Source: Rhizaria sp. SCN 62-66
Lineage: Eukaryota
Length of the DNA: 59,521 bases
Assembly (NCBI GenBank): GCA_001724265.1
Contig: MEDY01000160.1
Coordinates: forward strand, 1-59,521
Direction: 5' to 3'
The notes beneath the pieces were generated by a model. That model was given only the letters and a program-made list of their open reading frames with translations, was not told where the DNA came from and did no database searches. A program made the position numbers and the translations under genes. Below are positions 398-38,004 of this stretch, in pieces (positions within the stretch are counted from its first letter, which is position 1; each line of letters starts with the position of its first letter).

Positions 398-1217
398 ATG
401 TCTGACTCTGCCAACGCTTCGTTGTCTGCCTCTGCTCCCGTGACCGACTACTCAGCTGTTGCGATGTACCGTGAGCAGCTGGCCATCGTTCGCGCCGAGT
501 TAAGCAAGCTTGAAGATTATCGTGACAATGAGGAAGGTGAGAGCCCAAAGTCGAAGCGCCTCGACACTCGGATCAAGAAGAAAGAGAATGAGAAGGCTAC
601 GCTTGAGGCCAAGCTCGAAGCTGCGATCGACAAAGCTGCGATCAACAAGGCCGAGTAGCGGCATTTGCCCCCATCAGGTTCGTGTTTCATTTGTTGTGTT
701 GCTTGGCATTGGCATATTCATTATTCAACTGCTTTATGCCCCGCTTCTCCTCACAATTTCGCCCCCAATGTTTGCTTTCACAGAGTCGTGGAAGCGCTTC
801 TACTCCGAGACCACGAGCCCGACGACCCACCCTACCACCTCAACCTACTACAAGACCGACGCCGCGCCCGTCCATGTTCGCGCTTTCTTCACTCACGTGG
901 CTGCGTGGTTTGCTAAAAACAAAGATGTTCAACCGCTGAAAGAAGGCTACGAAGTGACGATGGGGGCCGTCCTTAGCCGCTCCTTCGAAGACGGCATTCA
1001 CGAGGTGTTCACGGATGAAGAGTGGGAGCACCTCACGCGCCTTAACGAGTGGGCCAACACCCAAAACCACAAGATCTACCTGCCTCGCGAGGCTGACGGC
1101 TCGATCACGATGATCAACCCCTTAGCTGTGTTCGATGCAAAGGCTATGAAGTCGATCGCTGTCAAGACGAACCTTGTTGCGAGCGTGGATCAGCTACTAT
1201 GCGCTCGTTTTTGTTGA
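398..1217 (+). CDS. Hypothetical protein (N-terminal coiled coil plus globular C-terminal region); model join(398..677,784..1217) with in-frame TAG at 656-658
   Basis: 398-655 has coding-like codon use (AAG/GAG/GCT/CGC). After the TAG the frame reads CGG CAT TTG CCC CCA TCA G|GTTCGT...TTTCACAG|AG TCG TGG AAG. Removing 678..783 joins it in frame to the ORF ending at TGA 1217 (...ESWKRFYSE...LLCARFC). No family recognised; could be a pseudogene. Confidence 0.55.
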
Positions 1218-2857: not shown

Positions 2858-4763
2858 TTACTTGCCAGTGCCTGCCTTCCCCTTAGCGCCGCCCTTGCTG
2901 CCCCCACTCGCACTTACACCGCCGTGCCCACTGCCACTACTTACACTGGCGTGTCCCTGGCTGCTGACGGGTGTGCCGACCCTCTTGCGCCGCTCCTCCT
3001 TCCGCTCCGCCTCGGCCACGGCTGGCGCCCCCGCGGCGCGCATGACGGCCCACACCTGCGCCTTAAGCGCCCGCGCCGCGTCGGCCGGCGCGTGCGGCGT
3101 CGGCACCCACCGCTGCGGTGCCGCCAGCTGCGCCCAAGCAGCGGGGTGTTGTTCCGCGAAGGCGTAGATCCTGTGGGGGGAAGCAACAAGGGAGCAACGA
3201 AGAACACGAAATGAGCGATATAGAGCGAATATGATATTTTTTCAAGAGTATACAGAAGAAAAAACAATTAACGTTCATTAATAAGCGATATATCCTAAAA
3301 TTAGTTGATATTAATAACAGTATGTCCCAAAAATATGTATCTCTTCTCTTTGTTTCGCCGTACCATGGGTGCACCTCGAAGCGGCCGCCGGTGGCTGCAA
3401 CGAGCGGAAAGAGGGCCGCCACAGGGAACCACCCGTACGCGGCGTGCTCCTCCGAGAGCGGGGGGCGCAGCGCCGTCTTGGTGGCCTCGGCGACCTTGCA
3501 GACGTAGACGGTGTACCGCTTGCACCCGTCGCCGCGGTAGACGTTGTGCGCCGTGATGAGCTGCAGCGGCGTCGGCAGGCAGCCCAGCTCCTCGGCGGCC
3601 TCGCGGATGGCCGCGGCCCAGGTGCCCGAGCCCAGCCCAAAGCCGTGGTGCAGGCTAGGCGGCGTGCCGCGGTCGTAGAGGGGCACTTGGGAGGACTGGG
3701 ACAGCAGCGCATTCGCAGTCGCCGTCGCGGTCGCAGTGGGGGCGGCGGCAGTGGTGGTTGAGTCGGAGGCAGTGCTGGCGGTTGAGTTGGCTTGTTGTGA
3801 CTGAAGTTGCTGGTGTCGTTGTTGCTGGCGCTGTTGGAGGTTAGAGTGGAAGTGGCGGCGGTACTGCTCGTCCACGGAGATGTCCTCTGGGTCGACTTGT
3901 CCTCCTGGACAAAAGCGGAAGCAAAGGCGGAAGCGAATGAAGCGTGAGAAACGCTAAACACAAGGTATGACAAATTATATATTCTCTCATTGAAATGAAA
4001 ACAAATAATACACGTAGTCAATATCCAAATAAATATTATGTTGCAATTTTGTGCAATAATATCATATTAGGCGTGTTTAAAGCTCTGTTTCGTGCGCAAG
4101 ATATTCGAGGAACGTACCGGGAAAGTCCCAGCACAGATCGTTGTAGCGCGAATTGCGCTGCAGTAGCAGGACCTCGCCGCCCGAGTAGAGCAGCACGCCC
4201 GCGCACAGCTTGTCGAACAGGTGCGCCAGCGCGAAAGGGTCGTCTCCGAGCAGCGCGGCCGCGGAGGCAGAGGCGGCGGCGGCAGTGGCAGAGCCGGAGC
4301 TGGAGCTGGGGCGACTGATACTGCGACCGTTACCCACTACCGCGGCGGCCTGGTGGAGCTGCGCAGTCGAGGAGGACCGGGAGACGCGGCCCGCGCCGGC
4401 CAGCCCGCCGCCGCTGAGGCTGCGGCTGTAGTGTGACCCGGGGTAGGCGCTGCTGCTGTTGCTGTTGTTGTTGCTGTAGCTGTCGCTGCTGGCGTGGCTG
4501 GCAGCGCTCTCTGCGCTAGGGCTCCGCATGCTCTTGAGCGGGACGGCAGCAGCGCCCGCGGCGGCGGCGGAGGCGGGGGAGTTGGGGTTGCAGTCGCTGC
4601 CGCTGCTCAACCCGCTGCTGCTGCCGTTGTTGTTGCATTTAGGGTGGTGGGTGTAGCCTGCGCTGGGGTGGCGGCGCGGGCCGCGGGGTTTGCGGTCCAT
4701 GCTATCGTCCTGCGCGCAGTCGCAGCCGCAGGCCTGGCGGAACCATCTCAGCAGGGCGGACAT
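2858..4763 (-). CDS. Nudix hydrolase-domain protein, complement(join(2858..3170,3364..3904,4118..4763)), about 499 aa
   Basis: Spliced protein reads CAGVLLYSGGEVLLLQRNSRYNDLCWDFPG|GQVDPED...AAAIREAAEELG...YTVYVC...LSEEHAAYGWF...HPW|IYAF, matching the Nudix beta-strand, Nudix box and 'EH..xxW' elements. Both introns are GT-AG with matching phases. Stop TAA. Confidence 0.85.
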
Positions 4764-5649: not shown

Positions 5650-8600
5650 TCACTCGCGGGAGCAAGCATCGCTGTCGCTGCCACTGGCACCGAGACGACG
5701 GCCGTGGCCGTGACCGAGGCCGTGCTTGTGGTCATAACGGCGCCACAGGCACCCGCGGCGGCAGCAGCAGCAGCAGCAGCAGTAGAAGCCGACGCAGCGG
5801 CAGCAGCGGAGCAGGAGCTCGACGGCGGCGGCCAGCAGCATCACAGCGGCGAGCGCGAGCGCGAGCAGGCCCGCGGCGGCGCGCACGGTGCGGCCGCTCA
5901 CGGTCACTGCCGCGGTACGCGTGGTGCCCACGGTCACTTCACCCACGGTCGCTTGGTTAACGTTGCTGCCGCTGGTTTCGCTCGTCGTAAGGCTCGGAGT
6001 CGTAAGGCTCGGAGTCGTAAGGCTCGGAGTCGCATCAGTGCTTGCAATGACAGCATCGTTCGCAAACTCCGTAACAGCAGCAGCAGTCTCAGCAATAGTC
6101 GCAGTCTCAACAGCAGAGGTCTCGGTCTTGGCCACAGTCACCGAACCAGTTGCAGTCACCTCGGCTACAATGCTTTGCTCCTGCTCCTGATGCTCCTGCT
6201 CCTGATGCTCCTGCTGCTGTTGATACTGCTCTTGCCCTTGCGTGTGCTGCTGCTCCTGAGGCTCCGGCTCCCCCTGCTCCTCCGCCTCCGCCCTGTACCG
6301 GGCCTCGGCCGCCCTCTGCACCGCGACCGTGGCGGCCGGCAACGCCCGCCTGGCCCTCTGCCGCGCCGCCAGGATCCCCTCCACGGTCGCGGCCTCGTTG
6401 CTGGTCCCGGCAGGCAGCTCCATCGGGCACGGCTTGGGAAAGTAGGACCGATAAAAGCCGCGCAGTACGGCGAAGACCTGCGGGTCGGGGACGCCGCGAA
6501 CGTCGTCGTTGATGCAGATGAACTTGGGCATCTTGGCCCTGATCCCGTCAAGGCGGACCTGGGCGTCGGCTGCGTTGTTGGGCATCATGTAGAACTCGAT
6601 CTCCGTCTCGGGCATCACCTCGTGCGCCCACCGCCGCCGGGCCTGCGCGGCGTAGGTGCGGACGAGCTGTTGCTGGAAGAAAGGGTGCGCGCGCAGGGTC
6701 TGCAACGTCACAGCAGCGGCGCTCGAGTCGACAACGGCGACAGTATTGCTGGAGTCAACGGCAGAAGAGTCTGAAACAGTGCCGTTACTCTGCTGTTGCT
6801 GTTGCTGTTGCTGTTGCTTGAGAGCGAGAGTGAGAGTGGCGTTTGCAAGAGCGGTGGTAAAAGGCGCGATATTGGTCTCGTTGACTCGCTGGCCGCCGTT
6901 GAGCGTCTGGAACATATACGCCACTTCGTCGTCGTCGAGCCGCCCGTCCCCGTCGAGGTCGACCTCGGCGAAGAGCGCCCGCAGCGACGCCGGCCGCGGC
7001 GCGTGCACCACATAGTAGTAGTACGAGAACGAGAACTGCATGTCGTGCGGGTGGCGGAAGCGGTGCGCGGCGGTGTCGGCAAACTGCTGCGGCCAGGCGG
7101 CATGGAGCTCCCGCAGCACGCGCGCGTCGACGAAGTGCGGCATGTGGGCCGGGACGAGGCGTGCGGCGCGGCCGAAGGCGGCCGTGTACAGCCGGTTGAC
7201 AAACTTGAGCGACTCGCCGAAGGTGTCCACGGCTAGGGGCGCGCGGGCGCCGGGGGACGGGGACGCGGCGCCGGGGGCGGTGACGTCGGCATTGACATCG
7301 CGAGGAGTAATAAGCTCCTCGTCACGGGTGGCCGAGAGCAAGTCGTCATCGCCGGGAGTATGAGTATGACCGTGACGTTGACCGTGACCGTGACCAGTGT
7401 GGCTGCGGCGGCCGAGGCGGGTGTAGGGGTCGCGGTGGTAGTAGGCCTCATCGGCGCTCAGCGCGGCCTCGGCAGCCGAGTGGAGCCCGGCCAGCAGCGG
7501 CACCGTCCAGGGGGCCAGCAGGGGCGGCGCCACGTCACTGTCACTGCCGACATCAGCGCCCCCAATGCTCTCGATATCGCCATTGCCGTTGCTGTTGCTC
7601 TGAGGGGATAGGAGCTCACGGACGGTCTGGCGCAGCAGAGCGCGGCCCACAGCGGCGGCGTCGACGACGGCAGCGTCAGCAGCAGTCGCGGAGGGAGTTT
7701 GACCGGCGCGTTTACTGTCACCCTGTGGAGTTTGACCGGCGTTCTGTGCGGTTTGACTGGCGCCTTGCTGTGAAGTTTGACCGGCGGCGCGCAGAGCGGC
7801 GAGCGTCTGCAGCAGAGGCGTGTGGTCGGCCGTGGACACGGGCCTCAGGCCACGCGCACGCAGACATGACATGCCACTCGCTGTTGCAACACCACTGGCC
7901 TCAGACACAGTCGCAGTTGATTCACCCGTCATGTGACTGTTAACGTTGTTGTTCTCGTCATCGATATAAGGAGGTGCGAGCATGAGTAAGTGTCCGAAAT
8001 GCGTGGCGATCAGCTCACAGTCACTCAACTCTTCCGCCCGTGCGGCAGCACTGCCCGGCGGGTGGGTGGCGAGAAGCGACTTAACATCAAAGTCAAGCCG
8101 CATGCTCCCGGGTAGAGGAGCGCGGTAACCCGCGCGCGGGTGGCGAGCCTCGCGGGAGTGTGGCGACTTAACTTCGTGAGCAGTATGCGGCTTGACATTA
8201 ATCGGGATGGAGAGCGGCTGACGGGAGCCGCTAAGTGCCTGTGCAGCAGACTCTACTGAGTCAGAAGCAGCGTTGTCGAGGCTATAGTCGTCATCATCAT
8301 CGCCGTCAATGTCGTCGTCGTCGTCATCCAAATCGTCATCACTCTCATCGGCGGCGTCATCGCTGTGGTCGCTGCTATCCCTAACAGCACTACCACCACC
8401 ACCACCACCACCACCAGCAGCAGCGGCGGCATCACTCGTCGCAGTCTCAGTCTCACTGGCACTGGCAATACGATCAGCCGCAGCAGTCGCAGCGGAGGCA
8501 GCAGCCTCGCCCGGATAGCGCTGGCCGCGAGTGCGGCGCATCCGGCCCACACGGCGACTGCGGCGTCCGCGACCGCGTCCGCGGCTGCGACGGGGTTGAG

Positions 8601-11600
8601 TTTGAGCCTCAGTCTCAGTCCCAGCCTCAGTCTCAGTCTTAGACTGAGCAACAGCATCCAACTCCGTCGTCGCCTCAGACGCAACAACAGCAGACTCAGT
8701 GGTAGCCGTCTCGGCATCGCTCGCAATCGCATCAGGAGCAGGAGCAGCAGCAACAGCTGCAGCCTTGCTATTGCTCACGGCAGCGGCAGCCTTCGTCTGA
8801 CCCTTAGACGCGGACACCTTGCCCTTAGACTTCGGCACAGCAGCGCCCGCCTTGGCCTTCGCCTTGGCCTTCCCAGCCTTGCTCTTCCCACCCCTAGCCT
8901 TTTGCGCACCGGCACCGGCCTTGGCCTTGGCCGCCCTCTGCTTGGCCACAGGCCGGGGCTCCCAGTCGCCGCCCCGGGCGGCCAGCGCGGCCGCCGCCGC
9001 CCGCGCCCCCGCGCCCGCCGCGGGGCCCATCGCCGCCCACACAGCCTCGTTGGCCAGCAGCGCGGCGTAATCGGCCGCCGTCGCGGTGCCGAAGCCGCGC
9101 GGGAGACGCAGCTCCGCAGCAGTCATAGCAGAGGCAGTCGCAGCGGCCTTCGCAGCAACGCCGGTGGTCGTCGTCATCTTCGGCGTGAGAGGTGACTGTG
9201 AGCTAGCGCCAGCGCCAGTGTGGGTGTCAACGCTGGCGGTGACGTCGGGAGCGGTGGCGGCGAGGGCGGCGGCGGCGTCAGCGATGGCGGCGGCCTCGAC
9301 AGCGGCAGCAGCGGCCGCCGCGAGGGCCTCCGCCATCGGATCCTGCTTACTCACAGTCGCAGAGACACTACTTACACTGTCGCCAGCAGATGGGGTATTT
9401 ACGCTAGGGCTGCGCTGAATGGCGCCAAACCGACGCTCCTTGCGCGCGCCCTTCCCCTTCTTCGGCGGCGGCGGCGGTGGTGGCTGCGGTGGGAACAGGG
9501 GCGCGTAAAAGAGCTCCCTGTACTGCTCCGGGTCCGTCCACGGCTTGTCGCCCTGTGCCAGCGCACGCTTGAGCCGCGCCACGGACCCCGGCGGCGAGAG
9601 GGGCAGCCGGCCCCGCGCCCGCTCGAGGAACACCAGCGCCATGTTGCCGCTGCCCACGGTCTCGGGGAACCCCGCAGCGCGGTTGGCGGCCGCCACAGCC
9701 TCGGGGGACATGCCGGCGCTGGCCTCGAGCAGGCCAATCGCCGTGTCGCTGGCGCGGGCGGCCGTGGCGGCGGCCGCGTCCGCGCGCTGCTGCTGCTGCT
9801 GCTGCGCCGTCAACGGCGGCGGCGGCGGCGGCATGCGCGGCGGCAGCGGGGGCCGGACGAGGATGACTGTGACGCGCACCGACACCTCCTCGTCCTCCTC
9901 GTCCTCCTCCCCGCCGTGCGCATCGCCGTGAGCAACCGAGCCGCCCTTGCCGCCGTCCCTTCGCGCCGGCGCCGACCGAGAGCCCTTGGGCGGCGCGGGC
10001 AGAACGCCGCGGATGGTGATCACGGCCTCGTGCTTTGGTGGCAGCGCAACGTCACCGCGCCCCGCCTCGATACTGCCCGCCTTAGCACCTTTAGCCTCGC
10101 CGCCGGGGCCGGCGCCGGCAGCGGCGTTTGCAGCGACGTCAGCGGCGGCGTCCTCGTCCGCGGCCGCCGCCGCCGCCGCCGCCGCCGCCTGCGTGAGCCG
10201 CTCGTCGTTGACGTCGGCGGCGAGCGCGAGGGTGAGCACGCGCGCGTTGTTGGCGACTGCGGCGGCACGGATGAGCCGCCGGTTATCGTGGCCGGCCTCG
10301 GTGACGCGGCCCGTGGCGGGGGAGACCAGCCCCGGGGCGCCGAAGACGGCCGCCAGGTCCAAAGCGACTGCGCGGGTGCCGGCTGGGACGGCGACGAGTA
10401 GGCAGGGCGCGGTCTCACGGTCACCGCCGCCCGAGCTATGACCGCTTGACTCAGCGCCGCCAGCGCGAGATTCTAGGCCTGCCTTACTGCGACCGTGGCC
10501 ATAAGCGTGGGTGTCGTCGTCGTCTTCGGCGGAGGCCGGGACGGGGCAGGCGAGCAGCTGGGGCGGGGCCGACAGGGGTAACCACGGCAGCGGCAGCACT
10601 GCAGAGTCAGCCTCAGACTGCGACTCCGGCTGTGAATCTGACTGGAGCTCTGCCGGCTCTGGCTCGGGCGCGGGCTCGGGCTCGGCGCCGGCGCGAATGG
10701 CGTGGCCGGTCAGGGCCAGCCTGAACCCTGCCACCTTCTCCCCCGTCCTCGCAGCAGCCGCGTTGGCCGCGCCGCCACTGCCCTTGACTGTCTGCCGTCG
10801 GACCATCGCCGGCACGAGGACCGTGAGCAGCGGCCCCCCCGCCGCGCCGGCACCGGCGGCGGCGGAGAGCGCGGCGGGGGGCGCGGGCGCGGCGGCGGCG
10901 GCGGGCACGGGGACGACGGGGAGCAGCGCGGTGCGCTCATGGCCGCAGTCACCCAGATCATACCCGCACTCGGGCACGTTGCAGGGTCCGTCGCAAGATC
11001 CGTCGCCGAGCCAGACGTACGGGCACCCGGGGCTGCAGTAGCGGCCCTGCAGCGCCGCAGCCATCGACGCGCCTCCCGCGGCCGTGCCGAAGCTAAAGCC
11101 GGCCCCCGGGGACGCCGCCGCCGAGCCGGAGCCGGAGCCAGAGCCGGTGGCCGAGGAGCCTTCTTGGCCCTTGCAATCGCCGAAGTCGAAGCTGCAGTCC
11201 GCGTTGTTGCAGGCGGCGTCGCAGTAGCCGTCGCCAAGCCAGGACTCGGTGCAGCCGGGCGCGCACTTGGGCACGGCCCAGGACAGGTATACCTTCTGCC
11301 CGCCATGGGGAGTCCAGAAGTCTCCGGGCAGGACGGCGTTGCCCAGCATCACGTCGTCGTTGAAGTACAGGAAGCGGTCCGCGAGCCCGGGGATGCGGTG
11401 CAGCTGCGACTCGATCGCCGGCGACGCGAACACGGGCAGGTGCGACCGGTTCGCAAAAATGTCTTGGTGGCGCACCAGCGCAATGCGCGGGTGGTCGAGG
11501 TCGAGCCAGGAAGGCACCTGCCCGTTGGTCACGAGCCAGACGCGGCGGACCCACGGCGCGTACCGGAAAAGGGACCGCAGCGAGTAGCGCAGCTCGTCGC

Positions 11601-14083
11601 TGTCGCGGAACCGGTTGGCGGCAGCCGAGGTGGTGTCGTCCTCACTACCGTCCAGCAGCGCCAGAGCGGCGGCCGCGGCCGAAGCGGCGGCGGCCGAGGA
11701 GGCCAGCACCGAGGCCGTGGCGGCGAGTGCTGCGGCCGCGCGCGCGGCCTCGATCAGCGCCAGCGCGTGGGCGGCCGCGGGGCGCAGGGCGCTCGCACTT
11801 ATAGTCGCAGTCTCAGCGGTCTCAGCAATCGCGGCTGCAGTCGCACTTGGAGAGTCGGAAAGCTCGGACTCTGAAGATTGCTGTGCCTCAGCCTCAGTCG
11901 CTGACTCCGTCTTGGTGTCAGAAGACTCGCCCTTGGCCTCAGCCTGAGCCTCGGTGCGCGGGTGCTCTGACGTCGCACGCGAGTCTGCCTGCGCCGCGTC
12001 TGCTTCGGCATCAGCGGCCTGGGTGGCGGCAGTGAGGTTGGGCGCACCGTACATCACGGTGGTGAAGTCGCCGCCCCAGCCAAGCCGGCCCAGGCCCCGC
12101 GACGGGGCGACACTGGCAATATCCGTCTCAGACGCAGTCTTCGTCTCAGTCTCAGCAGCAGCAGCAGAGGAAGCCTCAGACTCGGCGGACTCAGTGTCTG
12201 TAGACTTCGACTGAGAATCAGAGCCGGAGCCAGAGTCTGCCTTTGACTCCTCGGACTCACCCTCGCTCTGACTCTGGCTCTCAGACTGCGTCACAGCGGC
12301 CTCACTCGGGGCGCTACTATCGCCCTCTGGCGCGAGGACAACTGGCGCCCCCTCCGCCTCGGCCTCCGCCTCAGCCAGTCGCCACGCGTCTTCTGCCCGC
12401 ACCCAGGCCTCGACGGCCCGCTCCCTCGCCTCGGCCGCCGCCTGAGCCGCCTCGCGGGCCACGTCCTCGGCCTCAACCGCCGCCTCGCGCCGCAGAGCCA
12501 CGCGCCGGGTCGCGTTCACGCGCGCCGCGCGGTCCTCGTCGTCCTGAACAAAGAGAGATCAGAGAGGAGAAATAGTATAACAGAGATTGTGAGGGGATAT
12601 ATTAGTGAGTATTTTTGACAAAAACAAATAAATATTAAGAATTTCAATAAATAATAGTTAAAATATAAAACTTTGAGGCTAGATTAACGTTATATACGCG
12701 AGAAACATCCAAAGAGTTCAAGCCCTACCTGCACGAGCGCGCCCGACGCAATCTCCCGCTCGCGCCAGAGCGCGATGGCGGCCCGGAGGTCCGGGTCGGA
12801 ACCGTTGACCCAGGTGTACACCACGTCCACGGGCGGCTGCAGCAGCGAGTCGGCGGGCAGCGGCCGGCCGCCGATCGAGTCAGTGAGGTCACGGCCGTAA
12901 CAGCTTGCGGATTGACCGTGGGCGCCAGAGTCCGGCAAGGCCGGGTCGCAGTAGCCGCCGTTGCTGGCGAGGTTGCCGCGGGCACGCCTGCTCACGGCCG
13001 CCAACACGCTCGCAATGCCGGGGCCGGCGCTGGCGGCCACGCCGTCGCCGTCGAGGTCGCGATCACTCTGCTCACGGTCAGTGTCACTGTCGGTGAGGGA
13101 GCAGGGCAAGAACGCAGGCGCGGGGGCGGGGAGCGAGTGGGGCGACTTGTGGAGCATTGATGATGATGACGACGACGAGTCAGAAAACGAGAGATGACTG
13201 CGAGCAGAGTGGCTGTGAGCAGCGGAGGCGACTGTGACCATATCGGGCATCAGCACCGTCACGGCGGCGGTCAATGCGGCCGCCACCGCCCCCAGCAGCT
13301 CGTCGACCGTGAGCGCGACCGCGTTCGAGACAGAGGCGGAGACGGACTGGACCTGCGCTGTGACGGTGCCGCCGAGTACTGAGTGAGCCAGCGACAAGTG
13401 AGGTGGTGACCGTGAGTCCAACAGCAACATCTGCTGCGAGTAGGATTTCGCGTACTGAAGCAGCGGAGACATCACCTCAGCCAGCCCAACAGTCACCGTC
13501 TCCGGCACGGCCTCAGACACCAGCGCCGCCGCCGCGGCCGCCGCGGCCGCGGGCGCAGCGGCCGCCGCAGCCAGTCCCCGCTCGATCTGCGCCTCGATGG
13601 CCGCCAGCGCGGGCGCGGGGGCCAGAAGCAGAGTATGCGCTGCGTAGCCGGCGGCAGCCGCGAGCGCGAGCAAGAGCAGGGGACACAGGGAACGCAAACA
13701 GTGGCGGCGGCGGCGGCGGGGGCCGTGGCTGTGGGGGAGGCCGGGGGGGCGGGCATCGTCGCACACGGTCGTCGCGGCGGCAGACGCAGGAGCAGCAGTC
13801 GCGCTCGGAGTGGCAGCAGCAGCAGCGGGGGTGGCGGCGGCGGGGGTTGTGGCCACGTTGACTGTTGCGCTTGCAACTGTCGGGGCAGAGTCTGAGCTGC
13901 TGTCGGGCTTAGCGACCTTGGCGTTGTCGGCACTGCTGCACTCTGAAGCAGAGCTAGAGCTCGAGCTCGACTTTGAGCTCGACTTAGAGCGAGAGGCAGG
14001 GGATGTCACTGGCGATGCCTGTTTGCTGCCGCTGCTGCCGCTGCTGCCGCTGCTGCCGCTGCTGCCGCTGCTGCTGTTGCTGT

Positions 14084-14118
<35 letters not shown>

Positions 14119-14165
14119 TTGCTGTCAGCTTCGCTCGCAGACGAAGGCGGTGACAGTGACGACAT
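5650..14165 (-). CDS. GNPTAB: GlcNAc-1-phosphotransferase alpha/beta-like Stealth family protein, complement(join(5650..12543,12729..14165)), about 2776 aa
   Basis: Stealth CR1 PVDVVYTWVNGSDP (~12790-12835); CR2 RFRDSDELRYSLRSL..APWVRRVWLVTNGQVPSWL...[22 protein letters not shown] (~11290-11612); two Notch/LNR repeats ([62 protein letters not shown]); CR3 DTFGESL...VPAHMPH...RFRHPHDMQFSFSYYYY; EF-hand DLDGDGRLDDDE; CR4 KFICINDD; hydrophobic segments near both termini. AT-rich phase-0 intron 12544..12728. Stop TGA. Confidence 0.93.
5986..6030. repeat. Perfect 15-bp tandem repeat x3 (CGTAAGGCTCGGAGT), encoding TPSLT x3 in GNPTAB
   Basis: Three consecutive identical units are directly visible. 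Confidence 0.95.
14024..14124. repeat. Compound coding microsatellite (GCTGCCGCT)n + (GCTGTT)n, encoding SSG and SN repeats of the GNPTAB N-terminus
   Basis: Directly visible 9-mer and 6-mer tandem arrays. Confidence 0.9.
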
Positions 14166-15021
14166 TGTGACACAGCTCAGTCACCCACCGGCAGTGCGGC
14201 TGGCAGCAAGAGTAGGAGTGGGGTAGAGAAGTAAGTGCGCTCTATAACTGCGAATGCGGAGCTACGAATGCACTATGCAACACAGCAACGACCGAGCGTT
14301 CGCAGTGACAGGGAGAGATGAGAGAGCGGATAACCTCCGCTGCCGCTAAGAGAAGGCGCAGTGGCGGGGCGGCCAGAGCGGGGTACAGACGGAGCGTGCG
14401 CGGTCACAGTCGTCGCAGCAGACGTGCCGGGCGCGAGTGCGAGTGCGAGTGGTAAGCGAGTAGGGGGAACGAGACGCTCCTTTCGCGAGCGGGCCAGTAA
14501 GGGTGCAGAAAGGGGGCGGGATATAGTGAAGATGGGATCTGGATGAGATAAATACAAAAGATAATAGCTTTAAAAGATCGTATGTTTCCTAAAATGCTGC
14601 ATTTGTGCATAACAACGGAAGATACATAGTGTGAGACATGTCGAAAATGAGGCTGACAAAGTGACCGTGAGCCCCAGTCGGTCACGTCGGCCGACAGCCC
14701 GACTGCCGACGAAATTTCGATGACCAGCAAGCTCGTCTTCGGCAATTGACTGAAAAGACTAAAAATGGTGTTATACGTCGTTCCTGTGGACTATTATCAA
14801 ATAACCAGCTGTGTTTTGTTGTGGCGTATTTCTTTCTTGTATTATTTGTTGCGATGTCGGTGTATTTCGGCATCAAAACTCTGTTTGCCTTAATCCGCGG
14901 ACCCACGCCGTTTTGGTTCCCGCTGTTTCCCTCCAACCGACCTTCCCGGCTTTTCTCCTCACTTAACCGCTCTGCCTTTTTCTTTTTCCACCATGTTTCT
15001 GTCCGCCCCAGCCTGTCCGCG

Positions 15022-22924: not shown

Positions 22925-23529
22925 GGGGTTCTGTCTGGAAGTCATATCAGATTATAAATGCGCCGTATCTTCGGCGGAATATGTGCAGAATACATAGTAT
23001 ATCCAGGTTTTTTATCTGACCATGATGGTGATGTTAAGCTTACCGATTACTACTTATTTATGGTCAGGAATAGTGTTTCGAGACCTGGTGATCAAAAAAT
23101 TATGGCAGTTAAAAATTATGACAATGTGCGGGTGAATATACGTCCATACGAGGCAAATTTAAATTATCGCGTGAGTAGTCACAAGCGTAGATTTTGCAGA
23201 AAGAGAGAAAAAACAAGGGATGTGTGTGGATTATGATTTGCCGCGTTTAAATTGGTTCAAATCGACATAACAACAATTAAAGAAACAGATTTCACCGAAG
23301 CTAATAAGTCTGAAAATGTTGTATAAGGATCCAAGTATAGCTTGATATAAATCCAAGCAGAAACAGTTCCTTAGTACAATGTACTATCTAGAGTCAGGAC
23401 ACATGAAGAGTCCACTAGCAACACGTCACAGCCGCCTTACGCATCCAAATCTCGATCAAACCTATTCAATAAAACTTATTTATAAGACTATATACACGCA
23501 GTACAGCAAAATGCGCATTAATAAAACCC

Positions 23530-25722
23530 TCACAGACTCTCCTTCACCTCATCATCATCATTCTCATCCCCCTCAGTCTTCGCAGCCGCGGCGTTCATCT
23601 GCACCATAACATTCCCAGGCAGACTGTTTCTGCGCGTCACGACTTCCTCAGCCAGCACGCGCAAGTGCTCCTGCGCCGCCGCCAGCAGCCCGCGCGCCTC
23701 GCCCATGACGCGGCCCTCGCGCGCGGTCGCCGCGGCAAGCCAGCGCCGCGTCTCGCCCCGCTCCGCCTCTGCGCGCGCCGCGAAGGACCGTCCTTGCACC
23801 ACGAGCGCCACTGCGCGGTCCGACTCGGCGGCCGCCAGCACGCGCTGCAGCTCGGCGACCTTGGACTGTGAGACGGCGAGCGCGGCCTCGAGCTGCTGCA
23901 CGCGGCAGATGGCGCGCGCGCGCTCGAGCTCGGCGCGGGTGCGCGCCGCAGCCACCAAAGCGCTGCCAGACAGCGCCGACGCCGAGGCCGACGGTGAGGT
24001 CGACTTAGAGCTCGCAGTACTAGTGGTGTCATTGCTATTGTTGTAAGGAGGAGTGATGTTGCAGAGGAGAGCGACGCGGTCGGCCGCCGTCGTTAGCGTC
24101 TCGTTCAACCGCGAGAACCGCTCACTCGTGCTCACAGATACGCTCCCGTTCGCACTAGCACTCTCGTTATTAATGACGCGGTCTTCGTGCGCGATCTCGT
24201 ACAGCTTGTTCATGAGCTCGGACCGGCGGAGCGCCTCCCTGAGTTCGCGCGCCTCGCGCCGCAGCCGGCCCGCCTCGGCCGCCTCGGCCGCCGAAACGCG
24301 CGCCGCGAGCCGCGCCTCGGTGAGCGAGCGCTCGAGGTGGCCCGCGCGGTTCAGCGCCAGAACGTGCTGACCGTGGAGCGCAGAGTACGCTTGGCGCGTC
24401 GCACGGAGCACCTTGGTCGGCGAGGCAGGGTTAGACCCGCTCTCGGTCGCGGCAGAAGCAACGGCAGCAGCAGAGGAGTGAGCGCCATCATTGCTCGTGT
24501 TATTGATGTTGTTGTTCATGGAGTTGTGGAGATTGTTGATGCGGCTAAAGTCGGCATCGGGCGTCTCGCCAACCAGCCCCGCAAGCGCACTCGCACGTAC
24601 GCTTCCGCCTGCGCTGTAAGTCGCAGTGTTGGCCAAAGCGGCGGCCTCGACCGCGGAGCGAGCGGCCTGCGTCAGAACACCGCGGCCCACAGTGCGCGCC
24701 AGCGCCGCGGCGGCCGGGGGCAGCAGCGCCACCGACGCGGTCGTCTCGACCCCGTACGCAGCGGCGATGTCGCCTGTGCTCGTCGACGGAAGTGAGGGCA
24801 GAATGGCCGCGTTCAGCAGCGAAACCTCCTTCTCGTCCTCGCCGCCGGAGCCGCTGGCCGTGGCCGCGGCGGCGGCGGGCAGCGCAGCGGTGTCCGCGTC
24901 GGCGGTGTAGCCGGGCCGCGCCATATGCGCCAGCTGGACCGAGCCCTAGTGCCAGGCGCCGCGCCAGGAGTCCTCGAGCGCGGCGGCGGCGCGGGGGAAA
25001 GTCGAGGCTGCGAAGGACACGGCGGCAGCGACGGCGGGACTGAGCTGGGCGGCGATCGCGGCGGCGGCGTCCATGTCGAAGTCATTATCCCCATCGCTAA
25101 CGACGACAGTGCCTTCCTTTGATTTCGCGCCTGACTTAACCTTTAATGCAGAACTGGGGGAGGTCTTTGCTGCTGCTGCTGCGGCGGCAGAGGGGCTGTT
25201 GTTGGCAAGGCGAGAGCGTTTCTGAGGCGACACAACAGCCACGCCTTCCGTCGTGTCAATATCAGTCACATCGGAAGATATACTAGCAGCTGTCACAGTT
25301 GCAGTCGCACGCTTGTTGTTGCCAGTGCTGGCAGCGGCGGTAGCCGAGTCAGTGTCAGCGGCAGTCCTGGCGGCCACAGCGGCCCGCTCGGGCTTCACGG
25401 GACCCACCAGCGGCTTAGACCCAGCAGCAGGGGCGGCAGCAGCGGCAGCAGCGGCAGCAGCGGCAGCAGCGGCCTTGACGGCGCTCGTGGGGTGGGGCTT
25501 AACGGCACCCGCGGCCGCTGCGGAAGGCTTCACGGGGGTGCTGTTGGGCGCGAGAACGGCGAAAGGGGTTGGCTTACTCGCGGCGGACGCGGTGGCGGGC
25601 TTCTTCAGTGTGTTATTGCCGTTGGCCGGCTTGGCTGGGGTGCGGGTGACGGTGTTTTCGACCAGGACAGGGGCCGGGCCCGGGAAAGGGGCGCGCTCGG
25701 AGCGGCGAGCGTTTTGGCTCAT
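23530..25722 (-). CDS. Hypothetical Ala-rich protein with C-terminal coiled coils (about 730 aa), continuous frame with one in-frame TAG at 24948-24946
   Basis: ORF-track entries 24946..25797 and 23530..24924 are in the same frame: ...TGG CAC TAG GGC TCG GTC CAG CTG GCG CAT ATG GCG CGG.... Composition is GC-rich and coding-like on both sides, with no AT-rich intron or spacer. Heptad-like segments LERSLTEARL..ELREALRRSELMNKLYEI and RVQQLEAALAVSQSKVAELQRVL. Stop TGA. Confidence 0.65.
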
Positions 25723-26848
25723 CCTGTACAGGCGCGGCAAGGCGGCGCAAGGCTGATCGGAGTTGCGTTGTGCTGTGGGAACGTGTGAAGAGAGCAACAG
25801 TGGATGAAAGTGGACGCTGAGATCTGTTGGAACAGAGCAAACATGGCGCGAAAAGAAAGAGTTGAGGTGTGTGAGATAAAACCAAGTTCTTAAGAGATAA
25901 TAACATAGTTATCGCTAAATTTACGTCGCTTAAAGTGTAAATAAAATGTTTAAACTTGGTTACAAAAGGGAATAGAGGAGAAACACGTTGGGTGAAAAGA
26001 GGCGAAGATGGCGAAGGCTTCTTTCGCGCCACTGTTGCAAGTGCTAGAAATACACCTGCATATCAATCGTGCATCGTCATATAAAAAAGAAAAAAGAAAA
26101 TAAGACCTCACAAAATTATTAAATCACGCAATAACATTCTCTCCTGCAGCCGAATACCGCGAGAACGCCTTGATCTAAGACTCAACTCGGTCAATTTCAA
26201 AAAGAGCGGGAATGGGGGCGGAGCGCGGGCGGCAAACACAACATACGCGCGCGAAACCTGACTTTTCAAGTGCAATTTTTGTTATCCCTTTATAAATTCA
26301 AATAAAATGTGTATTATTACATTTGCAACGCTATAATTCAAACAGTGAAAGCAATATTATTTCTAAAGGTTTTCGTTTTACAGAGATATATCTTGCCGCA
26401 TGACGCAACATCGCAAATCTTCGCCGTAACAGCGCGAAGAGGAGGACTCGACCACTCTGAACGAGTTGTCACAAGCGCTAAATGTAGTTTCTTCGGGATA
26501 TAATGTGGTTGTTTTATATTATATCTCGACCTCACGTTGATCTTCAAATATCTAACGCGCATAAAAATCTCAAAGTGACAATAGCACAACTGTGCTCATT
26601 CGAATGAGTTAACCAAAGAATACGTCCAAAGTTGTCGTAAGTAGCACAACAACAGCCTCAATTGTCATCATAATACAGTCACACAGTCACAGTCACACTG
26701 CAACCTGTAACGAAACGTCACCGCCACCGCAGCAACAAAGAGCTCTCATATACAGTTCGTATAGCAGACATTATAATCCGCATAAAGCTTAAGTACATGG
26801 ACATGTACTCGTAAATAAGCTTATTCCTCTCTGTTTGTTGCTTGGGCT

Positions 26849-35660: not shown

Positions 35661-38004
35661 TCACATCTGCTGCTGGCCGCGGTGGCCGCTCTCAGCCGAC
35701 TTAGCGACGGCGCGCTTGTGCAGCTGGATCGCGCGCAGGATCTGCACGGCGCTGGCCTGCAGCTGCTGCAGCGGCAGGCGGGCTAGCATCACCGTCTCGC
35801 GGGTCATCGCCGCCGCGGCGCCCGGAGGCGGGCGGAACATCCTGTTGAGGAATCGAAACAAAGTGAGGCCAAGGAAACAGAAAGCAAGCAAAGATGTTTG
35901 AGTGACTCTGTAAGGAAATAATTTCGACAAAGCGAAAAAATAGCTTAAAAAAGCATGAAATAAAAATAAAAGCAGACATATTAAAGTCAACCGTGATATA
36001 TCTCATGTTAAAATGAAGGGTTTAGCTTGCGTACCTCGCCATCGCAGCCACCTCGGCAGCCTCCGCAGTGACATCCCCCATCGCAGTAGTCGCGGCCGCG
36101 GTCTTCGGACTGGCAGCACCGGGAGTCGTGAAGGCAAACTCGCCGTCATGGCCGTCATCGGCGCTCTCAGCACTCGAGCCCGCAGCCGCAGCCGCAGTCG
36201 CATTGCGAGTGCTATTGTTGGCGCCGCTAAGGCCAAACATCTCTGCCAGGGCCTCGACGGTGCCGTCGTCCTCGTCCTCCTCCTCAAGCCCACTCGCACC
36301 CGCGCCAGCGCCGCTGCTGTTGATGTTGTTGGTGTTGGCGTAGGGGCTGTACCCGCCGTTGGCAGCCTGCTGGTGCTTGTAGAAGCGCTTCATGTGGCGC
36401 ATGCTCTCGGCGCCGGTGGCCTTGACCGAGGCCAACGCCACGGTGAAGTCGGCGGCCGTCACGGCCCGCAGCCGCATGTCCCGCGCCCCGCGCCGCGCGC
36501 GCCGTTGCACGGGCCGCGCCGCGGCGCCGGGGCCCTGGACTGCGCGCGCCAGAGAGGAGCTCATGCTGACGCCGCCCGTGGCGTCCGAGTCGGGCACGGT
36601 CGCGTCGGGGTCACTGTCGTCGTCGTCGGTCACGAAGCCGTCGTCCTCGTCATCGCTCTCGCCGCCGCCGCGCGCCGCCGCCTTGCTATTGCCCGCTGCG
36701 TTGTTGTGCGTGTGGATGCGGTTCGCGGCGGCGAAGTGCTTGCGGTTGCGGCGAGTGAACTCGCGCAGGGGCTCCATCGCGGCCGCCTTGCAGAGCTCCT
36801 TGAGGTCAGACCCCGAGTACTCGTCGGTCTGCGCGGCCACATGCGCCACTAGCGCCCCCGGCTCCCCGGCCAGGGGGATGTCGCGCAGCAGCAGGGTCAG
36901 GATGGCGGCGCGCTCCTCAAGCCCGGGCAGGTCGAAGAGGATCTGGCGCGGCATACGGCGCAGGAAGGCGGCGTCGATGTCGAAGGGGCGGTTGGTTGCG
37001 CCCAAGACAAGGACGGGGGCGGAGTGGTCGGTAACGAGCCCGTCCCACTGCGCCATAAACTCGCCCTTAATGGTGCTGCTGGCGGAGCGGTCGAGCGAGG
37101 AGCGCGAGGACAGGAACACGTCGACCTCGTCGATGAAGATGATGCTGGGCGCGAACTTACGCGCCAGAGAGAAGATGGCGCGGGCGATCTTCTGCGACTC
37201 GCCGTACCACTTGTTCTCCAGCGTCGAGAAGTTGACCGGGATGAAGGTCGCGTTGCACTCCTTGGCGATGGCCTTGGCCATGAGTGTCTTGCCCGTCCCG
37301 GGCGGCCCGTAGAAGAGCACGCCCAGCGGGATCGAGAGCAGGTTGTGCGCGGGGGTCGCCGCTGCCGTCGCGCCCTCGCCAGCCTTGGCCATCGCAGACG
37401 CGGCGCTCGGGCGGCCGCCGGCGCGCTTGTTGGCTTTGCTGCTGCTGTTGTTGGCGGAGAAGGCGGTGGCGGAGTTGAAGAGTTGGGGGTGCTGCAGCGG
37501 CAGGAGAATCGTCTCCCACAGGGTCTCTTTGATGTTGCGGAGGCCGCCGATGTCGTCGATGGAGACGTTGATTTGCTCGGGGAAACACATGTCGGAGAGG
37601 ATCATCATCTCGTGCTCGTCGATAGCGGGAAGGGTGCCCGGACGCTGTACGTATGCGCACAACAAAGCAAGGAGGCAAAAGCAAGCGAAAACGATGCAAG
37701 AGAGAGAAACGTAAGCAAAGCGGGTTATAACGAGGTTTTAGAGAAAAATAGAGTATAGAAGAAATAGGCGAGAGGTAATTAAGCTTTGTTGTAGCTAGAT
37801 TAAGGAACGTACGCCGAGCTTGATCCAGATTTTGTAGAGGGCCTTGGTAGCAGCTTTGGAGCGCTCAGTGTCCTCGTTCTTGAAATGGTTTGCGATCTTG
37901 CGCGCGAGCCAGATCGACACGATCGTCGGGGCAACAACGGTGATGACTTCAAATGCCGTGGCAATCCACGCCTTCCAGTTCGCCTGGTTGGCGGCACTGG
38001 ACAT
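35661..38004 (-). CDS. ATAD1: Msp1/ATAD1-like membrane-anchored AAA+ ATPase, complement(join(35661..35841,36035..37644,37813..38004)), about 660 aa
   Basis: N-terminal hydrophobic anchor; DEHEMMI...PEQINVSIDDIGGL; Walker A GVLFYGPPGTGKT..AKAIAKE; pore loop KWYGESQK; Walker B IIFIDEVD; KGEFMAQWDGL; SRH VLGATNRPFDIDAAFLRRMP; YSGSDLKELC. Intron phases match. Stop TGA. Confidence 0.92.

Follow-up and report, generated by a model that had tools for sequence, protein, structure and literature searches.

An in-frame TAG in an orphan alanine-rich coiled-coil gene of an uncultured wastewater protist is probably a GAG-to-TAG nonsense allele

The window, by which we mean the whole 59,521-nt stretch of DNA analysed here, originates from an uncultured wastewater/bioreactor protist whose exons are GC-rich and whose introns are AT-rich. 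Its genes include those for a GNPTAB-like Stealth/Notch-LNR protein, a PIKfyve-like FYVE/CCT protein, AP-2 alpha, an ArfGAP, an AAA ATPase, two WD40 proteins, a cytochrome-b5 desaturase, an aspartate aminotransferase and a NUDIX protein. The GNPTAB-like protein (5650–14180, minus strand) comprises Stealth CR1–CR4 and a Notch LNR domain, and very long Ala/Ser/Glu-rich inserts located between CR2 and CR3 extend it to more than 2,700 residues; its gene has one AT-rich intron near 12558–12690. The AP-2 alpha exon has an unnamed relative, P0003 (83 % identity), and its best named match (51 %) is a transcript with a Paulinella accession prefix (cercozoan amoeba); the other named matches, at 42–48 %, come chiefly from algae, plants and stramenopiles, and a single one is fungal. 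Comparison of the same exon with genome contigs and viral contigs returned no relatives. An affinity of the organism with Rhizaria/Cercozoa is possible on these sequence matches, as a weak lead.

Introns in the window have a GC content of 0.28–0.43, GTACGT-type donors and YAG acceptors, and the surrounding exons range from 0.55 to 0.74. The donor consensus, G/GTACGT (with C at +4; the slash marks the splice position), recurs at 4117, 27630, 32991, 37812 and 49838, with introns of 100–250 nt. Together with AT-rich introns in GC-rich exons, it constitutes a signature that could be used to recruit further contigs of the same organism.

The gene of interest lies on the minus strand (Table 1), where translation of the frame from the ATG at 25722 to the TGA at 23532..23530 gives 258 codons, a TAG, 471 codons and the terminal TGA. 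The preliminary description of this DNA, made from the letters and an ORF list, had reported a single 731-codon frame interrupted by one TAG, and this holds when the terminal TGA is counted. The sequence around the interruption (24960..24922) reads GGC GCC TGG CAC TAG GGC TCG GTC CAG CTG GCG CAT ATG, matching that description letter for letter. As it had also noted, the two listed ORFs (24946..25797 and 23530..24924, both minus strand) belong to the same frame, because 24948 − 24924 = 24, and the TAG is separated from the following ATG by exactly 21 GC-rich nucleotides (24945..24925). The 464-aa ORF that starts at this ATG, P0002, is what prokaryotic gene callers report.

Table 1. Coordinates of the features discussed in the text (positions are those of the window)
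Feature	Position	Strand	Remarks
In-frame TAG, codon 259	24946..24948	−	GAG (Glu) in the X6 RNA contig
Upstream coding part, codons 1–258	24949..25722	−	Ala/Pro/Lys-rich, low complexity; starts at ATG 25722
Downstream coding part, codons 260–730 plus terminal TGA	23530..24945	−	Coiled-coil-like Ala/Arg/Glu-rich stretches
First ATG past the TAG, Met267	24922..24924	−	Start of the 464-aa ORF P0002
W-R-G-A-W-H, codons 253–258, just before the TAG	24949..24966	−	Aligns with W-R-R-D-W-N in the N-terminal region of P0124
Best conserved segment, residues 541–687, including LVVQGRSFAARAE-ER--TRRW	23662..24102	−	Common to P0124
Gene A	398–1217	+	Exon 1 from ATG 398 to in-frame TAG 656–658; no Pfam family

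Since long open frames occur by chance in GC-rich DNA, frames were scored by codon log-odds, using a model that was trained on ten other ORFs in the window (11,199 codons) and excluded the target gene. The part upstream of the TAG scored +89.7 in frame (other five frames, −137.8 to −19.8) and the downstream part +126.0 (other five frames, −230.1 to +2.4). We then applied a two-sided test to all 3,188 stop triplets in the six frames, accepting those flanked on each side by a stretch of 40 codons that lacks stops and scores above 6. Two triplets passed. One is the TAG at 24948..24946 (17.4 and 18.1); the other is the TAA that ends the AAA-ATPase gene, with 14.8 and a weak 7.0 downstream. The position of the TAG between two coding-like flanks is therefore more than chance. 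Beyond the TAA of the AAA-ATPase gene (35701–36024, minus strand) lie 106 in-frame stop-free codons, which score weakly as coding (7.0 over 40 codons) and have a GC3 of 0.42; this stretch is probably a 3′ UTR.

The two ORFs are one intron-free gene of 730 codons. A collinear RNA contig of run X6 (described below) and the alignment of a distant homologue, P0124, both continue across the TAG, so the two ORFs cannot be read as adjacent genes. The earlier suggestion that no separate transcription unit fits between them is borne out by the same evidence, the X6 contig being unbroken from 24800 to 25090, and the checks proposed with it, i.e. for a single transcript and for an orthologue aligning across the site, have both given that result: the RNA contig is collinear over the TAG with no intron, and P0124, though a distant homologue, has a sense residue there. 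The remark that introns in this DNA are AT-rich was right for the other genes, and the GC-rich surroundings of the TAG contain no such intron. A cryptic intron removing the TAG was considered and rejected, as no AT-rich intron with a GTACGT-type donor flanks the site and the RNA contig is collinear. The sole donor-like motif upstream, at 25310, would imply a GC-rich intron of 365 nt that breaks the frame.

The TAG is genuine in the DNA. Scanning metagenome contigs for the target region returned a single match, the 1,809-nt contig L001 from a separate JGI metagenome, which is identical to window positions 23340–25148 with zero mismatches, TAG included. A Logan contig of run X3 (1,895 nt, 23340–25234) likewise carries the TAG and differs from the window at no letter; X3 bears a different study code from X1, the likely source run. 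P0002 is found on six contigs from three sources, and the repeatedly assembled form of the gene is accordingly the TAG form. All TAG-bearing sequences examined are DNA or of unrecorded kind. On these grounds, we reject an assembly error, including the consensus error listed as an alternative in the preliminary description, given that L001 and the X3 contig carry the identical TAG.

Four of the 16 listed runs were compared with the window (X3, X4, X5 and X6), of which X3 and X6 cover codon 259; X4 and X5 have zero cover there and are hence uninformative at that codon. X6 is a polyA metatranscriptome of activated sludge from 2025. Its record 27, a 291-nt contig, spans 24800–25090 without gaps and with a single difference from the window, A>C at plus-strand position 24948, which changes TAG to GAG (Glu) on the coding strand. 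Because X6 has no depth over the intergenic region 25814–26818, its signal looks like RNA; in X4, from the same study, the depth there is 8.2. GAG at codon 259 was thus seen in RNA alone, the DNA-containing run X4 lacking cover at this point. A putative joint from 24891 to 25048 in X3 and X6 was discarded, as the records behind it match just 40 nt with seven differences and have 156 nt swapped for 39 others; these records are from other GC-rich organisms.

At 23358 and 23638, X4 and X6 agree with each other and depart from the window, indicating that the population they sample is a distinct strain at the DNA level. The two strains differ by ~0.2–0.3 % in DNA (~10 differences in ~4.6 kb of X4 contigs), or by ~0.2–0.6 % of sites on a wider estimate. 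Besides codon 259, three differences fall in the coding sequence of the gene, one upstream of the TAG (codon 148) and two downstream (codons 522 and 695), and all three are synonymous (codon 148, for example, is ATA/ATC). Such synonymous-only differences on either side make the gene look constrained, which suggests purifying selection on the whole gene and fits poorly with a tolerated null allele. Between 23000 and 29000, there are four synonymous strain differences of A/T versus G/C (ATA, GCT, GCA and AAA), with the window carrying the A/T-ending, unpreferred codon in all four, and three non-coding differences, with the window carrying G/C in all three. In these small numbers, the window strain tends to have the less typical base in coding and non-coding sequence alike.

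Searches with the protein itself returned little. No Pfam family was found for either half, and the ESM Atlas model is of low confidence (pLDDT 0.52), with look-alikes that are coiled-coil-like, unnamed entries only (at 0.91). An exhaustive search with HMMER, covering 1.84 billion representatives, gave two matches, the protein itself and P0124 (430 aa, E value 2e-13). BLASTP aligns P0124 with residues 541–687 (46 % identity over 147 aa, E value 3e-24). In addition, the first 16 residues of P0124, MRWRRDWNARAEQLAR, align with DSWRGAWH-X-GSVQLAH, placing a sense residue at the TAG position; the local score of this alignment across the TAG is 49, a value reached by 0.4 % of 2,000 shuffles. A word-based search found the protein itself as its one match among 7,999 scored candidates, although poly-Ala words may crowd out relatives, and exact look-up of the full-length Glu version showed it to be absent from a collection of 15 billion proteins. 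The predicted product is a fast-evolving orphan, Ala-rich, of low complexity, largely disordered and partly coiled-coil. In fast-evolving orphans of this low-complexity, coiled-coil-like kind, truncating alleles can persist.

The only other candidate for an in-frame TAG in the window is that of gene A. Some 19–21 nt past it lies a donor, CAG/GTTCGT at 677/678, which with an acceptor at 783/784 would join exon 2 in frame. Both exon parts score as coding, and exon 2 does so for 58 codons ahead of its first ATG, so an upstream exon is needed. There are further in-phase GT sites upstream of the TAG, e.g. AAG/GTGAGA after 536. The triplet at 656–658 may therefore be either a second in-frame TAG or one avoided by alternative donors upstream of it. 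Exon 2 of gene A (700–1217, plus strand; P0123 and P0125–P0129) occurs in at least two haplotypes that are ~85 % identical at the protein level. P0127, from a 59,459-nt contig, has one haplotype in its first half and the other in its second, a mosaic that could reflect recombination or else a chimera assembled from coexisting strains.

At the ends of genes, the window has 13 terminal stops, each followed by AT-richer sequence: seven TGA, six TAA and no TAG. The probability of finding no TAG among 13 is 0.055 if the TAG share is assumed to be 20 % and 0.25 if it is assumed to be 10 %, in what is a small sample. These counts are suggestive of TAG avoidance in a sample too small for a conclusion. 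ARAGORN found no tRNA genes in the 59.5-kb window, and hence no tRNA with a CUA anticodon within it, and an Rfam scan of the window returned no matches. The genes of the window do not include eRF1.

Several explanations of the TAG were weighed against a GAG-to-TAG nonsense allele. An artefact, be it a mistake in sequencing or assembly, a minor variant promoted into the consensus or two genes sharing a frame by accident, is highly improbable. It draws some room from the nature of the evidence, which consists of contigs, in which allele frequency and heterozygosity are not visible, and from the common start of L001 and the X3 contig at 23340, which may mean that they derive from related samples; against it stand the TAG with zero differences in two further assemblies and the 464-aa ORF on six contigs from three sources. 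For two genes in particular, the GAG transcript and the P0124 alignment both cross the junction and only 21 GC-rich nucleotides separate the ORFs. Alternatively, UAG could be a stop with useful readthrough, programmed or as tolerated leakiness, such that some full-length protein is still made. The intact downstream frame, with strain differences that are all synonymous, and the presence of the TAG allele in several assemblies would suit this reading, yet we consider it very unlikely. Programmed readthrough sites are normally conserved stops. This stop is not conserved, as the related population has GAG and P0124 a sense residue at the aligned position, and the programmed readthrough put forward in the preliminary description is disfavoured for that reason. 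Moreover, the base after the TAG is G, and G after UAG is a strong termination context. RNA editing, by which a TAG carried by all the DNA would become a sense codon in the transcript, is barely credible, even though GAG was found in an RNA library alone and X4 does not cover the codon. In filamentous ascomycetes, A-to-I mRNA editing converts UAG to UGG, so a stop in DNA is likewise set beside a sense codon in an RNA library. Here, however, it is the first codon position that differs (U to G) rather than the second (A to I); the X6 RNA keeps the A in the middle of the codon, which contradicts the A-to-I editing that had been proposed. We know of no U-to-G mRNA editing system, and the X4/X6 strain differs from the window genomically too, with the differences at 23358 and 23638 shared by DNA-containing data.

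The main proposal of the preliminary description was that UAG is translated, for which reassignment is one route. In the form of reassignment weighed here, UAG would be a sense codon, probably for Glu, by means of a suppressor tRNA or an altered eRF1, and codon capture would be very recent or would involve very few codons. We regard this as unlikely. In its favour are the lack of TAG among the 13 terminal stops, the candidate second TAG of gene A before a phase-compatible donor resembling the GTACGT consensus, the fact that, with TAG read as Glu, none of the four strain differences in the gene would alter the protein, and the cercozoan transcript (51 % identity) as the closest named match of AP-2 alpha. 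The code in an Oligohymenophorea sp. is said to read UAA as Lys and UAG as Glu. Reassignments of UAG alone are known from Rhizaria, fornicates and ciliates, and one ciliate is reported to use UAG as Glu. The literature describes UAG as Leu in the rhizarian exLh (384 in-frame UAGs in 71 genes) and as Gln in Iotanema spirale (204 in-frame UAGs in 126 genes), with 1.6–5.4 in-frame UAGs per gene in known UAG-reassigned protists (PMC5304391); UAG as Leu or Gln in phyllopharyngean ciliates (PMC11687900); UAR as Glu in Blastocrithidia (PMC12153298); and a ciliate code in which UAA and UAG specify different amino acids (PMC10553269). The window resembles the UAG-only codes in having an in-frame TAG, TAA and TGA as stops and no terminal TAG in 13. 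In those codes, however, hundreds of in-frame UAGs occur at conserved positions, whereas the window has one or two TAGs in ~14,000–15,000 codons, of which the clear one alternates with GAG between strains. The codes with UAG as Glu (Blastocrithidia and the Oligohymenophorea sp.) share with this locus that the relative's sense codon at position 259 is a Glu codon, but their reassigned codons are frequent; here TAA is a common terminal stop (6/13) and TAG is nearly absent in frame. Instead of many in-frame UAGs across genes, we found only codon 259 and, possibly, gene A 656–658. The other clear codons of the window, ~13,500 (the ten training ORFs with their 11,199 codons, plus further stop-free exons), contain no in-frame TAG, and ORFs of 2,302, 1,705, 2,919 and 1,014 codons are free of it. 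This near-absence contradicts a reassignment of the known kind and, together with GAG at the codon in the related population, speaks against the translation of UAG. If UAG were a sense codon, that a strain so similar should differ at exactly codon 259 would be a coincidence, estimated at roughly 1–3 %; a nonsense allele predicts such a difference. The window also contains no tRNA gene, the statistics of 0/13 terminal TAGs are weak and the in-frame status of the gene A TAG rests on predicted splicing. Incipient UAG capture, with UAG gone from gene ends, TAG and GAG at codon 259 synonymous and the gene A TAG as a second sense use, is accordingly unlikely. If it were true, i.e. if TAG stops were missing and a second in-frame TAG were present genome-wide, the organism would show the earliest stage of UAG reassignment, of which, to our knowledge, there has been no direct observation so far.

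A GAG-to-TAG nonsense allele in a gene for an orphan Ala-rich coiled-coil protein is, by contrast, the probable explanation. With GAG at codon 259 in the RNA of a near-identical strain, an ordinary nonsense mutation is most likely, rather than a new code. Two findings that bear on it are that the collinear gene in a related sequence (X6, 291 nt) has a sense codon one substitution away and that the stop is in genomic DNA, identical in L001 and the X3 contig. GAG is one transversion from TAG and is the top-used of the ten codons tallied (370/11,199), eight of which are one substitution from TAG. The high weight given to the nonsense allele and the low one given to sense decoding are judgements that give a variant code a low prior, not computed posteriors. 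A nonsense allele had been named among the alternatives in the preliminary description and turns out to fit best, the X6 RNA differing from the window by TAG to GAG and nothing else. The precursor codons listed there (CAG, TGG or TCG) give way to GAG, which the related strain reads and which we infer to be ancestral.

The event would have been a single G-to-T change, GAG (Glu259) to TAG, within the 730-codon gene, with GAG as the presumed ancestral codon. In the TAG allele, translation would end after 258 residues, and the downstream 471 codons may be lost, weakly expressed by reinitiation at Met267 or translated by low-level readthrough. The TAG allele is the form assembled from bioreactor/wastewater DNA of 2015–2017; the activated-sludge population of 2025 expresses the uninterrupted GAG form. 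As in natural nonsense polymorphisms elsewhere, the stop is a one-nucleotide change from a common sense codon, GAG, which the conspecific population has, the frame is intact on both sides and the gene is an orphan with a single distant homologue among 1.84 billion representatives. It differs from them in that a loss of function is putative, in that every other difference in the gene is synonymous and in that the TAG allele recurs across several assemblies.

Read in this way, the orphan gene carries an ordinary nonsense allele of natural origin, which is of little weight alone. The locus is of use as a worked case, in which the transcript of a near-identical strain decided which codon occupied the site: when a metagenomic contig of a eukaryote has a lone in-frame stop, that stop is no evidence for a variant code.
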